A stretch of DNA of 50,066 bases from Escherichia phage EF3-1: sequence record PQ571291. One strand, given 5' to 3'. Both the position numbers and the translations under genes were made by a program. The notes below the pieces were generated by a model. That model did not search any database. It was not told where the DNA came from and worked only from the letters and a program-made list of their open reading frames with translations. This document shows, one piece after another, positions 29,078 through 40,645 of the stretch. Position 1 is the stretch's first letter. Every line of letters begins with the position of its first letter.

Positions 29078-29119
29078 ATGATACACCGCCAATGGTATAC
29101 GCTTTTTGCAAAAAGTGCT
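29078..29119 (-). promoter_or_regulatory. early-promoter cassette (minus strand)
   Basis: Minus-strand AGCAC-TTT-TTGCAA, 22-bp spacer, TATCAT (plus 29078-29083). Confidence 0.45.
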
Positions 29120-29124
29120 ATTGG

Positions 29125-29541
29125 TTATAAGTATTTGGCCTCAAAGGTTGTGCCGTCTGCGATACTAAAGCCAACCTCTTCGCGAAACAAGGTCCAGCGA
29201 CAACCATCTTCATCAAAGATGTAACCAGCCACGCCACCGAGAGCGCGACCGCTTTCAACCTGGTAACGCTTGCCAACTTTGAATGATTTTTTCATTGGGT
29301 TGCGATGGTCAAGCCCGGTGCACTTGAGCGTCTTTGTTTTCAACTCAGTGAACTTCGCGAAGAAGATTTCATTAGATCCGTGAATCTGTAATTCATCATG
29401 CTTTTCAAGTTTTAAATACTTCCCGCATTTTAATTTTACTTCGCGAGTGCCATCATAGCGCTCACGACCTTTATACAAATTGTTTACTTCGAATCCTGTG
29501 ATTTTGTCTGCGGAAGTGCATTTCAGTTTGATGGATTTCAT
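29125..29541 (-). CDS. hypothetical protein (138 aa)
   Basis: SD within conserved leader ACCAATCAGGAG. Confidence 0.55.
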   Translation of the reverse strand: MKSIKLKCTSADKITGFEVNNLYKGRERYDGTREVKLKCGKYLKLEKHDELQIHGSNEIFFAKFTELKTKTLKCTGLDHRNPMKKSFKVGKRYQVESGRALGGVAGYIFDEDGCRWTLFREEVGFSIADGTTFEAKYL

Positions 29542-29577
29542 GGCGTTCGCTCCTGATTGGTTATCTTGAATAAGGTC

Positions 29578-29620
29578 ACTTTATCAAATGACCTTACGGC
29601 AATATTAACAAATCGTGCTA
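29578..29620 (-). promoter_or_regulatory. early-promoter cassette (minus strand)
   Basis: Minus-strand TAGCAC-GAT-TTGTTA, 22-bp spacer with hairpin AAGGTCA..TGACCTT, TG-a-TAAAGT. Confidence 0.45.
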
Positions 29621-29621
29621 T

Positions 29622-29831
29622 TTACCAGGGAATATAATCGTCGTCGTCCTCATCAATATCATCGCCAGGTAACTCGAAGTTTGGATTATATTCGCTTTCC
29701 GCGTCCATATCCATATTCCCTAGCGCGTCCTCAAGTGTGATTTCTTTATATGCAACCTTGATACACCATTCCGCACTAAGCCCGGCATCAAGAGCGGCAA
29801 AATAACGAGTCCAGAAATTATCCCGTTCCAT
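29622..29831 (-). CDS. small highly acidic protein (69 aa; DNA-mimic/anti-restriction candidate)
   Basis: C-terminus ELPGDDIDEDDDDYIPW; overall strongly acidic; SD GGAG. Confidence 0.55.
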   Translation of the reverse strand: MERDNFWTRYFAALDAGLSAEWCIKVAYKEITLEDALGNMDMDAESEYNPNFELPGDDIDEDDDDYIPW

Positions 29832-29834
29832 CAA

Positions 29835-30059
29835 TTAACTCCATGAATTAATGTAAATTGAGTTAGCCTCAAGCGTAGCGCGCACATCAGCATCTGTTGC
29901 ATTTACTGAGCGCGAGCCTGGCGTGCTGCCGATAACGTTATTACCGTTACGAGTCTTAGTTACCGTCATTGAAATAAAACCGGAAGACTTATCCATTTTG
30001 ATAACTACACGGCCTTTCGCGTTCAGGTGCTTGATGATATTCTCAACTTTAATGCTCAT
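29835..30059 (-). CDS. hypothetical protein (74 aa)
   Basis: SD AAAGGAA; preceded by cassette. Confidence 0.55.
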   Translation of the reverse strand: MSIKVENIIKHLNAKGRVVIKMDKSSGFISMTVTKTRNGNNVIGSTPGSRSVNATDADVRATLEANSIYINSWS

Positions 30060-30092
30060 TTTTAATTCCTTTGTTTGTTTGGTGTGGGAGTA

Positions 30093-30134
30093 ATATACCT
30101 TACTCCCTGCTGATTGTCTTTAGCTATTCGTGCT
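30093..30134 (-). promoter_or_regulatory. early-promoter cassette (minus strand)
   Basis: Minus-strand AGCAC-GAA-TAGCTA, 22-bp spacer with hairpin GGGAGTAA..TTACTCCC, TATATT-like box. Confidence 0.45.
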
Positions 30135-30135
30135 A

Positions 30136-38399: not shown

Positions 38400-38522
38400 A
38401 TGAATAGCTTTATGCCTGACTTTAAGAACTGGAAAAACGAACCTCCATCATTTCAGGAGTTGTTATTCTGCCTACTGGTTTTGACGCTATCTCTTAAGGG
38501 TGTTTTATGGCTACTATCATGA
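38400..38522 (+). CDS. possible small membrane protein (40 aa, not in ORF track)
   Basis: SD GAGGTG; hydrophobic LLFCLLVLTLSL; overlaps start of next ORF. Confidence 0.3.
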   Translation: MNSFMPDFKNWKNEPPSFQELLFCLLVLTLSLKGVLWLLS

Positions 38523-38725
38523 CAGCAGAAGATGCAGCACGCGACGCAGTTGAAGGAATGCGCCCAAATAGCTCCAGAATCGCCCACTACTACAAATCTG
38601 AGGTGTCGGCAGTGCAATTGGTCAGCGAGGTTTTAAGGCTCCCACAAGTCGATTCAGCGCGCGTGGTGACGTGCTTAAAAAATTATTTTTGCATCACTAT
38701 TAAAACGAATAGCACGAATTGCTAA
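38507..38725 (+). CDS. hypothetical protein (72 aa)
   Basis: Reads through the downstream motif (…TNSTNC-stop) and stops at TAA inside TTGCTAAAAC. Confidence 0.45.
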   Translation: MATIMTAEDAARDAVEGMRPNSSRIAHYYKSEVSAVQLVSEVLRLPQVDSARVVTCLKNYFCITIKTNSTNC

Positions 38726-38752
38726 AACCTATCAAGGGGAATGCGCTATGAT
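38708..38752 (+). promoter_or_regulatory. early-promoter cassette
   Basis: AATAGCAC-GAA-TTGCTAAAAC, 22-bp spacer with GGGGAAT..ATTCCCC inverted repeat, TATGAT (38747-38752). Confidence 0.5.
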
Positions 38753-38782
38753 TCCCCTACACCAACAAACGAGGGAACACTC

Positions 38783-39229
38783 ATGAAACATTTGATTTGC
38801 ATTGATACACCTAACAATGAACACACCCTGCACGGCATTGGAATGTTCAAAGGCCACTACATGACAGCAAGCATTTATGATGCGCGTCGCGGCGATGGCG
38901 ATCTGATGATTACGTCAAAAGACGTTAATCCGTACATCATGCAGAATCTTGGCAACAATGAATATATGGCTTACGGATGCAACGCGGTGTACAAGAATGT
39001 CAAGATCCGTAAGCGTATTGTTCGCGCATTTAAGAAAATCGCCATGAAATACTGGAAGATGAGCAAGAAGGACGCCGGACGCTGGGCGCGTAATGTTGCA
39101 GACTCATATTTCTATAGCGGAGGAGAGCCAGCCAGCTTCCTGATCGATGAAATGATGGAAAATTATAGCGGCACATTCTGCCAAAGTGACTTTGACGCCT
39201 GGGCTGAATACGAGGTCGACTGCTGGTAA
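38783..39229 (+). CDS. hypothetical protein (148 aa)
   Basis: ATG at 38783 (M15 of track ORF) with SD GAGGGAA. Confidence 0.6.
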   Translation: MKHLICIDTPNNEHTLHGIGMFKGHYMTASIYDARRGDGDLMITSKDVNPYIMQNLGNNEYMAYGCNAVYKNVKIRKRIVRAFKKIAMKYWKMSKKDAGRWARNVADSYFYSGGEPASFLIDEMMENYSGTFCQSDFDAWAEYEVDCW

Positions 39230-39272
39230 TAGCACTAATTGCTAAAACTTGCTCAAGGGCATTTGATAGAAT
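39228..39272 (+). promoter_or_regulatory. early-promoter cassette
   Basis: AATAGCAC-TAA-TTGCTAAAAC, 22-bp spacer with AAGGGCAT..ATGCCCTT inverted repeat, TG-a-TAGAAT (39267-39272), leader GCAACCAATCAGAGGA. Confidence 0.55.
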
Positions 39273-39312
39273 GCCCTTCGTTGAGTTAAGCAACCAATCA
39301 GAGGAATAAATC

Positions 39313-39924
39313 ATGGATAAAATTACCATTTGGGGTCAGACTATAAACCTGTTTCTCGGCACTCGCCGCGTGGCAATCTTTGACTTCGACGGAACACTGA
39401 GTGACGGCTCAAAACGTCTTCACCTGCTACCGACGAAAGATTTGCACTTGACGGAAAGCTGGTCTGAGTTCAACCGCGCGGCAATATTTGACAATCCTAT
39501 CCGTAGTACGATTGATGTGATGAACTCTATGTTTGCCGCTGGGTATCATGTGATCATTTTAACCGGGCGAAGCGATGAGGTTCGTTACGCATCTGAGTTA
39601 TGGCTTAAGCATCACGGCGCGCGATATGATTACTTAGTCATGAGGCCGCATACCGACAACCGCAAAGACACGGTAATGAAAGAAGAGGCGGTGCGAGCGA
39701 TCGGCATTGATAACATTCTGGCGGCCTGGGATGACTCACCGCAAATTATTCCATTATTCCGATCGCTTGGAATAACCACTTACGCTGTAGTTGACTATGG
39801 CGATAACGTTCACGATCATTTAAAATCTCATGGCGTAGATGAGGTTTGCAATCATGAACCATCTGAGCCGCTACCGCCATTTGGCGATAAAATATGCATT
39901 AAGTGCAAGGAGTTATTAAAGTGA
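39313..39924 (+). CDS. HAD-superfamily hydrolase (putative nucleotidase/phosphatase)
   Basis: HAD motif I FDFDGTL, motif II ILTGR, C-terminal acidic motif region. Confidence 0.7.
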   Translation: MDKITIWGQTINLFLGTRRVAIFDFDGTLSDGSKRLHLLPTKDLHLTESWSEFNRAAIFDNPIRSTIDVMNSMFAAGYHVIILTGRSDEVRYASELWLKHHGARYDYLVMRPHTDNRKDTVMKEEAVRAIGIDNILAAWDDSPQIIPLFRSLGITTYAVVDYGDNVHDHLKSHGVDEVCNHEPSEPLPPFGDKICIKCKELLK

Positions 39925-40031
39925 ACCTGTACGAATTTATTGCAGCGCATCCGGTATTAACGGTTATCATCCTGTTAATCATCAATCACACCATCATCAA
40001 TGTGGCAAAATTATTTTTAGGGAGATACTAA
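39921..40031 (+). CDS. small hydrophobic protein (36 aa, GTG start, not in ORF track)
   Basis: GTG overlapping HAD stop with SD AAGGAG 9 nt upstream; TM-like PVLTVIILLIINHTIINV. Confidence 0.4.
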   Translation: MNLYEFIAAHPVLTVIILLIINHTIINVAKLFLGRY

Positions 40032-40032
40032 C

Positions 40033-40605
40033 ATGAAAACAGCTATCGTTTTAAACGGTGCACCAGGCGCAGGAAAAGACACTATCGGATGCATCCTGGC
40101 TGACACTTACGAACATGTAGCGCTACGCAGCTTCAAAGCGCCAATGTTTGAGATTGCCCGAGCAATCCTGGGTGAGGCTAATTTCGAATATTTCATGTTC
40201 TTGTATGAGGACCGTCGCTACAAAGAAGAGCCAGCGTCAATCCTGAACGGTAAAAGCCCACGCCAGTTTATGATCTGGATTAGCGAAGAAGTAATCAAGC
40301 CTCAGTTCGGTAATCGCTTCTTCGGTATGCGAGCAGAAAGCAAGGTGAAAGAGTCGCACTCCCTTTCGGTATTTACTGACGGTGGATTCAAAGATGAGAT
40401 CCTGCAAATGATTGAAGGTGATATCCAGGTCAAGCTATGCCGCATCCATCGCAATGGTTGCAACTTCGATAATGACAGTCGAGACTATATCTACCTTGAT
40501 GATATGATCGGAGTTAACGGTTATCAGGAGTGTGATTTCTTCTCTGTTGAGGGTCATCCTGAAATTACCGCTCAGCACATAGCCGCCACGTTCATCAATA
40601 AATAG
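40033..40605 (+). CDS. deoxynucleoside monophosphate kinase-like P-loop kinase
   Basis: Walker A LNGAPGAGKDT and NGKSP motif resembling T4 gp1 dNMP kinase; SD GGGAGA. Confidence 0.65.
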   Translation: MKTAIVLNGAPGAGKDTIGCILADTYEHVALRSFKAPMFEIARAILGEANFEYFMFLYEDRRYKEEPASILNGKSPRQFMIWISEEVIKPQFGNRFFGMRAESKVKESHSLSVFTDGGFKDEILQMIEGDIQVKLCRIHRNGCNFDNDSRDYIYLDDMIGVNGYQECDFFSVEGHPEITAQHIAATFINK

Positions 40606-40645
40606 CACGAATTGATAAAACGTCGATGGGGTGATTTGATATAGT
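40601..40645 (+). promoter_or_regulatory. early-promoter cassette
   Basis: AATAGCAC-GAA-TTGATAAAAC, 22-bp spacer, TG-a-TATAGT (40640-40645), leader TACCTCATCGACAACGAAGAGAG. Confidence 0.55.

Follow-up and report, generated by a model that had tools for sequence, protein, structure and literature searches.

The small genes found between positions 29084 and 40639 of Escherichia phage EF3-1 (sequence record PQ571291; "the window" refers to the whole stretch of 50,066 nucleotides that was analysed) lie on either side of a divergent control region (33090-33720). They are separated by cassettes in which a conserved box, ATAGCACnnnTTGnTAAA, is followed by a -10 element and accompanied by an inverted repeat of variable sequence. 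The box is present in 26 copies in the window, on both strands: the pattern GCACnnnTTGyTAAA gives 35 loose matches, compared to 12.7 expected, which a reading of the hits reduces to 26 real cassettes. In a sequence search, region 33000-41000 matches 260 phage records, the best of which (about 90% identity) include those of the Escherichia/Shigella phages vB_EcoS_SA12KD, IME18 and Sfin-1, of the genus Tunavirus (Drexlerviridae); judging from these top matches, the window is therefore the genome of a T1-like siphovirus of the Drexlerviridae. T1-like phages are common coliphages and Klebsiella phages, they serve as models and in therapy, and their transcription signals are poorly defined. We argue that the inverted repeats are maintained for their pairing, and that they probably encode a stem-loop of the upstream message which is overprinted on the promoter of the next gene.

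The cassettes were compared with those of a family sample consisting of 72 IMG/VR loci around homologs of the polynucleotide kinase gene (54–98% protein identity), which contain 755 box matches and 547 distinct spacers. In this sample the distance from the TTGNTA of the box to the -10 is constant, 22 bp, so that the cassettes can be aligned without gaps. If the box occupies positions 0–17 of the alignment, a G is found at position 36 (-14) in 90% of the cassettes and is preceded by a T in 51% of them, T-A-T-A-A/G-T at positions 38–43 is the -10, positions 46–49 (-4 to -1) are C-rich, and position 50 is an A in 81% of the cases. This A is the putative transcription start site (TSS), and the geometry reads as that of an extended -10 promoter, with TGn at -15 to -13, the -10 at -12 to -7 and the start at +1. 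By the same register, TTGNTA is at -40 to -35, which is 5 bp too far upstream for a working -35, and no -35-like sequence appears at -35 to -30 of the alignment. The original prediction, which was made from the letters of the phage DNA, described a 22-bp spacer between TTGNTA and a -10-like box; the distance is indeed constant, but it is not a true -35/-10 spacer, since the promoter is of the extended -10 type. A scan of the region for canonical promoters with a spacing of 16–18 bp finds no excess (28, compared to 28.7 expected) and misses the cassettes, which do not correspond to a consensus sigma-70 promoter with an AT-rich upstream region and a -35 and -10 about 17 bp apart.

The box is also where many upstream genes stop. 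In 265 of the 453 cassettes that have an upstream open reading frame (ORF), the stop codon is the TAG of aTAGcac (box positions 1–3), and in a further 59 it is the TAA of TTGnTAAA, which means that genes terminate within the conserved box. The Shine-Dalgarno (SD) sequence and the ATG of the next gene follow at about +20 to +35. Two leader motifs, A/C-rich and G-poor, are seen between the putative start and the SD: CATCGA(A/C)AACGA and ACCAATCAG(A/G)GGA (for example at 36090-36105, 37392-37404 and 39296-39310). Within the box, the imperfectly palindromic TAGCA-N5-TGCTA has its centre at about -42 from the putative start (as in 36040-36057 and 37327-37344); this is the position of a class II activator site, in a promoter that has an extended -10 and lacks a -35. 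A Pfam scan of 20 flanking proteins revealed no DNA-binding domain that would point to a factor binding the box: the matches are domains of unknown function (DUF), a homolog of the trigger protein Gp54 and DUF3987, and most of these proteins have either no Pfam match or a match to a DUF only.

When the 40 nt located 3' of TTGNTA are folded, the mean minimum free energy (MFE) for the 26 boxes of the window is -11.0 kcal/mol, compared to -5.4 for dinucleotide shuffles (z = -14) and -5.3 for random 40-mers of the window. A cassette is said to fold, here and below, when its MFE is ≤ -9 kcal/mol; 19 of the 26 do so, against 10–12% expected, and the z-scores of single hairpins range from -3.6 to -6.2. 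Between 29084 and 40639, 14 of the 16 boxes have a stem (13 of these fold by the above criterion), and the two stemless boxes, 33103(-) and 33308(-), are both in the divergent control region. The claim that nearly every cassette carries an inverted repeat is thus borne out, and the four repeats that were quoted in support of it, at 36068-36089, 37353-37376, 39255-39278 and 23505-23524, are all found exactly there. In the family sample, 74% of the 547 distinct spacers, which come from 73 sources, fold (the per-locus median is 86%). No match was obtained at the gathering score in an Rfam scan of the whole window.

The stems are GC-rich, with 6–11 pairs, and they are found in two arrangements. 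In class A, the 5' arm is at about -30 to -16 and the 3' arm at -9 to -1 (sometimes extending a few bases beyond +1), so that the loop contains the -10. In class B, the entire hairpin lies upstream and its 3' arm finishes in the first bases of the -10. The idea that the inverted repeat sits inside the 22-bp spacer must therefore be amended: the 3' arm is usually outside, either across the -10 from the 5' arm or ending within it. In both classes the arms use the positions that an extended -10 promoter leaves free, namely the spacer and the discriminator, or the spacer alone, which accounts for the combination of conserved loops and variable stems.

Comparison of the sequences indicates that the pairing is under selection. 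Exchanging arms between cassettes raises the mean MFE from -12.0 (native) to -7.75 kcal/mol when all cassettes are considered and, when the exchange is confined to sets with the same downstream gene, from -14.9 to -10.2. In the orthologous set of cassette 29118(-), six of the nine stem pairs have changed on both sides, 89.7% of the cells are paired, compared to 67% in shuffles (none of 500 reaches the observed value), and the covariation score is 0.59 against 0.20, with slid registers giving at most 0.21. More generally, orthologous cassettes show many compensatory variants and some replacements of the whole hairpin, and class A and class B hairpins interchange upstream of the same gene. The covariation check across related phages had been named beforehand as one that could refute the selection on pairing; the compensatory changes have been found, and the loss of stability upon arm swap and the retention of the hairpin in 82–100% of the members of most orthologous sets (see below) agree with them. 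We also considered, and dismissed, a site for a sequence-specific protein, given how freely the arms vary.

The hairpin acts on the sense strand. In a strand-neutral search, the mismatches inside the stems, read on the sense strand, are G:T or T:G in 110 cases and A:C or C:A in 18; after dereplication by orthologous set and column the counts are 70 and 13 (p ~1e-10). In the flanks, sense-strand differences are C/T and A/G in a ratio of 1.10:1, close to equality, so that mutation bias does not explain the excess of G:T. In 339 spacers the sense strand folds more stably than the antisense strand, the reverse being true in 152. Last, the four-nucleotide loops of class B, which are free of promoter constraints, are of the GNRA type in 40 of 81 cases, when about 3% are expected. 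The folded molecule is most likely RNA rather than the sense strand of the DNA.

As a rule, the hairpin appears only behind a co-directional gene. Hairpin retention is bimodal among orthologous sets: in most of those with at least 8 members, 82–100% of the distinct members have retained the hairpin, and the sets that lack it (c4, c10, c16, c20, c21, c23 and c29) consist of operon-first, antisense-orphan or truncated cassettes. The hairpin-less cassettes are the homologs of 33103(-), which form three sets (c16, c23 and c29), 33308(-), 19952(+), the antisense orphan 49154(-) and the truncated cassette 42436(+). In c16, c23 and c29, the first cassettes of the leftward unit, the box and the -10 are kept and the hairpin is absent, which shows that the promoter does not need the repeat. 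The proportion of folding cassettes is 87% among those with an upstream ORF, a classing by stop-free frames that is noisy, as it includes spurious frames of 40–70 codons in the control region and misses genes of less than 40 codons; we therefore judged the dependence on the upstream gene by comparing orthologous sets instead. The stem starts 17–25 nt after the upstream stop codon and usually ends at or just before the putative start site, from which it would follow that it belongs to the RNA that reads in from upstream, and not to the cassette's own transcript. When the flanks are discordant between genomes, both arms track the upstream gene in 40–42% of the cases and the downstream gene in 23–28%. 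The original prediction had left the choice between RNA elements of the upstream message and DNA structures; the predominance of G:T over A:C, the GNRA loops and the dependence on the upstream gene favor the former.

The cassettes of the leftward unit are, from left to right, the following (all on the minus strand). Cassette 29118(-) (29066-29121, box 29121-29104) has a hairpin at 29092-29066, with the core CGGTGTA/TACACCG and the -10 TATCAT in the loop (z = -6.2), and its TSS is predicted at about 29071. In cassette 29566-29621 (box 29621-29604), the hairpin 29597-29570, TAAGGTCA/TGACCTTA (z = -5.7), has the -10 TAAAGT (29583-29578) in its loop, and in cassette 30086-30136 (box 30136-30119) the hairpin 30107-30086, GGGAGTAA/TTACTCCC, has the compensatory counterpart GTGAGTAA/TTACTCAC in orthologs. 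Cassette 31202-31252 (box 31252-31235) has a weaker hairpin (31223-31205) and a -10 TATAGT at 31214-31209. Cassette 31619-31669 (box 31669-31652) has a class B hairpin at 31649-31630, TGCCGGA/TCTGGCA, with one G:T pair. In cassette 32073-32133 (box 32133-32116) the hairpin 32114-32073 is interrupted, and the -10 CATAAT (32095-32090) is in the loop. The first promoter of this unit is that of cassette 33103(-) (33056-33106), which has a degenerate box (33106-33089), a -10 TATGAT (33068-33063) and no hairpin. Just upstream of it, an ATTCC/GGAAT inverted repeat (33121-33154), which is conserved in distant relatives, may be an operator. The divergent control region also contains box 33308(-) (33261-33311), with no -10 and no hairpin (18% of its set, c21, fold), canonical sigma-70-like promoters at 33327-33355, 33395-33424 and 33627-33655, and a run of AT dinucleotides at 33413-33432.

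The rightward cassettes of the same region are all on the plus strand. Cassette 34245-34295 (box 34245-34262) has a class B hairpin at 34263-34283, GCCCGGTC/GATCGGGT, with a G:T pair, and its -10 TATTAT is at 34283-34288; the small early protein encoded at 34255-34515 (+) gives a hit (E = 2e-35) to Pfam PF25180, "phage antiviral trigger protein Gp54", and the adjoining small proteins match DUFs only (DUF7274, DUF3850/ASCH-like and DUF7421). Cassette 34982-35034 (box 34982-34999) has a bulged hairpin at 35004-35034, GAT-GGGG/CCCCATC, and the -10 TATAGT (35020-35025) in the loop. In cassette 36040-36090 (box 36040-36057), the hairpin 36068-36089, GGGGTT/AACCCC (z = -4.0), which is changed to the compensatory GTGGTT/AACCAC in orthologs, encloses the -10 TATAGT (36078-36083), and the putative TSS is A 36090. 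The hairpin of cassette 36601-36651 (box 36601-36618; hairpin 36620-36648, GGGGATT/AATCCCC, -14.6 kcal/mol) has a 3' arm that is overlapped by the -10 TACAAT (36639-36644). That of cassette 37327-37383 (box 37327-37344; hairpin 37353-37376, AAGGCCA/TGGCCTT, -10 TATAGT at 37365-37370 in the loop) is found behind the same upstream gene in three loci of the sample, L002, L010 and L014, despite different downstream genes. Cassettes 38709-38759 (box 38709-38726; hairpin 38735-38758, AGGGGAAT/ATTCCCCT; -10 TATGAT at 38747-38752) and 39229-39290 (box 39229-39246; hairpin 39255-39278, AAGGGCAT/ATGCCCTT; -10 TAGAAT at 39267-39272) follow, and the last one, 40602-40657 (box 40602-40619), has a long hairpin at 40622-40657, GTCGATGGGGT/ACCTCATCGAC, with a G:T pair and the -10 TATAGT (40640-40645) in the loop (z = -5.4).

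Outside the region 29084-40639, cassette 23485-23535 (+) (box 23485-23502) has a class B hairpin at 23504-23525, TACCCG-GCGAAAGT-CGGGTA, with a GAAA loop (z = -5.3) and a 3' arm that runs into the -10 TATAGT (23523-23528). Cassette 25473-25523 (+) is also of class B (hairpin 25495-25510, CCCGAA/TTCGGG; -10 TATAGT at 25511-25516), and so is 22462-22512 (+) (hairpin 22482-22501), whose sequence is the same as that of the cassette with box 31669-31652 (-). In the late region, cassette 15460-15511 (+) has a degenerate box and a hairpin at 15488-15511, ATGAGGTG/CACCTCAT, with the -10 TATAAT (15498-15503) in the loop. Cassette 19952-20005 (+), the first of a rightward unit, has no co-directional upstream gene and shows only a weak, long-loop repeat; 8% of its orthologs fold. 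In the truncated cassette 42433-42450 (+), the box leads straight into the ribosome-binding site (RBS), with no -10 and no hairpin; it comes after a canonical bidirectional terminator (42391-42408, AACCCGCTTCGGCGGGTT then TTTTTT), an arrangement that is kept in 18 relatives. Orphan boxes at 2980-2997 (-), 49140-49157 (-) and 18410-18427 (+), opposite to the surrounding late genes, have a weak -10-like hexamer and no hairpin, and may be antisense promoters.

The original prediction also stated that the repeats have no T-tract and are not classical terminators. Among the 8 nt located 3' of the stem, class A hairpins have 0.8 T on average and class B hairpins 2.45, and at least 5 of these 8 nt are T in 1.4% and 7.6% of the cases, respectively; since the U-tract is missing, the hairpins are not canonical intrinsic terminators. 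The absence of a T-tract holds as a rule, with two reservations. The hairpin 34263-34283 passes a lenient scan for a T-rich tail, because the -10 TATTAT comes next. Outside the region, 19500(-) (19443-19503) is the one cassette that looks like a canonical terminator, with a hairpin at 19483-19443, ACGCGTAG/CTACGCGT, then TTTTTT, and its orthologous set folds in 100% of the members. Canonical T-tract terminators are found elsewhere in the window, at 42391-42408 (see above) and at 38358-38381 (+), where a strong one, with a 10-bp stem then TATTTTTAT, stands between two rightward genes, outside the box cassettes.

We propose that the hairpin belongs to the upstream message as a 3' or intercistronic stem-loop, written over the promoter that comes next, and that it would serve as a barrier to decay and/or as a leaky attenuator; we consider this reading probable, without holding it with great confidence. 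The cassette would be a promoter of the host RNA polymerase, of the extended -10 type, with a distal conserved box at -50 to -33, and the inverted repeat would encode an RNA stem-loop that is made only in the RNA that reads in from upstream. We infer that this stem-loop would be a stabiliser or an attenuator, blocking 3'-5' exonucleases and/or leakily attenuating read-through, and each small gene would consequently rely mainly on its own promoter. Since class A and class B hairpins are interchangeable, their shared role would call for no more than a stable stem-loop lying after the stop codon and before the next start, and would depend neither on a U-rich tail nor on a fixed place relative to the -10. 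RNase III sites were also considered and, for general reasons, rejected, the stems being too short.

Several points weigh against this proposal. The TSS, the read-through RNA and the 3' end at the hairpin are all deduced from the sequence, and in the literature searched we found neither TSS nor Term-seq data for the T1 family, nor earlier descriptions of the hairpins. Among the cassettes that were scored as having no upstream ORF, 58% still fold, although many of them probably follow short genes that escaped scoring. The tolerance of G:T pairs would also be compatible with the folding of the sense strand of the DNA. The compared sequences are phylogenetically related, so the counts overstate the number of independent events. 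Last, strong terminator activity was seen in a lacZ test for the stem-loop of the analogous RB49/phi1 cassettes (PMC2839356), and the T1 hairpins may really terminate transcription.

The observation of a conserved pairing could be accounted for in other ways. It is barely conceivable that the repeats are a by-product of composition, a G-rich spacer and a C-rich discriminator, each selected for promoter function, looking complementary by chance: the region of the 5' arm is indeed G-rich and positions -4 to -1 are C-rich in the family profile, and the arm-swap chimeras still fold somewhat better than shuffles (-7.75 compared to -5.4 kcal/mol), but native cassettes are more stable than chimeras by 4–7 kcal/mol, and non-G/C stems covary too (e.g. 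TTGTTGCCG/CGGCAACAA in place of GGCGGTG/CACCGTC), so that the swap and covariation tests exclude a pure effect of composition. Alternatively, the repeat might work in DNA: a cruciform, or a hairpin on one strand, would mask or uncover the -10, and the promoter would then respond to supercoiling or to a structure-specific factor. The arms do lie on either side of the -10 or next to it, in a promoter register that is fixed, the hairpin promoters of the virion polymerase of phage N4 are a precedent, and Horwitz and Loeb reportedly engineered a promoter that is regulated by a cruciform. We nevertheless find this very improbable, considering that a cruciform requires pairing on both strands, whereas the mismatches are biased 70 to 13 in favor of G:T on the sense strand, that in dozens of genomes the box and the -10 are retained, without the repeat, in cassettes that begin a unit, and that one and the same locus can have either the class A or the class B placement. 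Moreover, stems of 6–9 bp with loops of 6–10 nt extrude poorly. Neither a phage RNA polymerase nor a phage sigma factor has been reported for phage TLS (PMC11447400), and the cassettes do not behave as hairpin-dependent promoters with pairing on both strands. We see little more than a slight chance that the repeats serve mainly for recombination, the stem-loop cassettes being sites where crossovers reassort small genes, as has been suggested for the PeSL elements described below, and the pairing being secondary. Gene modules located between conserved cassettes are replaced among close relatives, the edges of indels are found at the RBS/ATG directly 3' of the cassette, and the ends of alignment blocks are enriched about 2.5-fold within 10–25 nt of cassettes (a modest effect, based on the boundaries of BLAST blocks). 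One cassette is chimeric, its 5' half coming from one hairpin family and its 3' half from a second. In EF3-1, 43 nt of box and spacer, including the hairpin TGCCGGA/TCTGGCA, are identical at 22465-22507 (+) and 31624-31666 (-), about 9 kb apart, which suggests a recent exchange or conversion between cassettes. However, homologous recombination would need the conserved box and the 5' untranslated region, and not the variable stem, and this hypothesis leaves unexplained the compensatory changes, the G:T bias, the GNRA loops and the absence of the repeat in operon-first cassettes.

That the hairpins are genuine rho-independent terminators, each small gene being its own unit and the polymerase at the overlapping promoter aiding termination, is unlikely in our opinion, but it has to be taken seriously. 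The GenBank record of the closest relative labels exactly these hairpins as terminators (WebGeSTer, TransTermHP), a stem-loop of the T4-type PeSLs decreased lacZ expression as much as the rrnB T1 terminator (PMC2839356), and in bacteria a weak terminator gains strength from a coupled promoter that overlaps it (preprint 10.64898/2026.08.19.745784). Loops of the GNRA type and stems rich in G and C are characteristic of terminators, and in class B the hairpin leads into the T-rich -10, hence the lenient pass of 34263-34283. On the contrary, few T follow the stems (see the counts above) and class A stems precede ATCGAAAC; proper T-tract terminators are used at the ends of units, which makes the missing tract of the cassettes look deliberate. 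A variant in which the hairpin and the promoter form one unit, the incoming polymerase being stopped or released independently of a U-tract, exactly at -1 of the next promoter, strikes us as improbable; the promoter-bound polymerase would enforce termination, or the released polymerase would re-initiate on the spot. If this were true, it would be a natural hand-over device, repeated about 20 times, that sets the expression of each small phage gene.

Under the reading that we prefer, in which the stem-loop belongs to the upstream message and shares its DNA with the next promoter, box, extended -10 and hairpin together would make a coherent map of about 20 promoters per genome, and the routine labelling of these hairpins as rho-independent terminators would be corrected. 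The cassettes would represent a natural case of dual coding, where a DNA promoter and an RNA stem-loop share the same 50 bp, and their hundreds of natural compensatory variants make them a convenient system for studying how promoter and transcript-end signals are coupled.

Parts of this element are already known. The box corresponds to the 21-nt direct repeat aaATAGCACnnnTTGnTAAAA of phage TLS, which was noted also in T1, Rtp and Rogue1 (PMC11447400), and which is oriented with transcription, about 76 nt before start codons. The TLS paper treats the repeat alone, suggests that it is a stoperator, an enhancer site or an UP-like element, and mentions neither the -10 register nor the hairpins; only three sigma-70-like promoters were found in that genome, and the repeat was left unexplained (PMC11447400). 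The hairpins are known as terminators by annotation: GenBank records of close relatives label them as rho-independent, and papers on T1-like phages count 18–21 such terminators per genome (PMC4070988). The kind of composite element is known from the PeSLs. What is new is the promoter register, the covariation, the sense-strand signature and the restriction of the hairpin, as a rule, to cassettes that follow a co-directional gene.

The PeSLs of the T4-type myoviruses RB49/phi1, PST and nt-1 are the closest described system: they are intergenic cassettes running from stop to start, with a host promoter and a variable stem-loop that lies most often in the stretch separating the -35 from the -10, or over the -10, they attenuate a reporter, and they have been implicated in module shuffling (PMC2839356, PMC4122927). 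Like them, the T1 cassettes are repeated intergenic elements of about 70–100 bp that run from the upstream gene's stop codon as far as the SD and start codon of the next gene, and they combine a host-type promoter with a stem-loop of variable sequence located before or over the -10, often a G-run facing a C-run with G:T pairs; they may also, as the PeSLs do, preferentially adjoin small genes of unknown function and signal the exchange of modules. The T1 cassettes differ in belonging to siphoviruses of another family, the Drexlerviridae, in having an extended -10 and a box at -50 to -33 instead of a consensus -35 and -10 separated by 17 bp, and in being found in the late region too.

E. coli REP elements, which are mRNA-stabilising stem-loops located between cistrons, have a conserved sequence and no overlap with a promoter. 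The T1 hairpin is, similarly, a stable hairpin between co-transcribed genes and has no U-tract; it differs in that its sequence varies freely provided it pairs and in that it overlaps a promoter, and its function as a decay barrier would be analogous. With intrinsic terminators the T1 hairpins share the GC-rich stem of 6–11 pairs, the short, GNRA-enriched loops and the position soon after the stop codon, but they lack the U-tract that the true terminators of the same window possess. The promoter-coupled terminators of bacteria are defined by an RNA 3' end within 35 bp upstream of a TSS on the same strand (Fletcher et al., bioRxiv 10.64898/2026.08.19.745784). In both systems, one stretch of DNA would end the upstream transcript and start the next one, which saves intergenic space and couples neighbours. 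In promoter-coupled terminators, however, the stem-loop doubles as the -35, the T-tract is just before the -10 and the RNA ends about 10 bp before the TSS, whereas the arms of the T1 hairpins flank or precede the -10 and no T-tract follows them.

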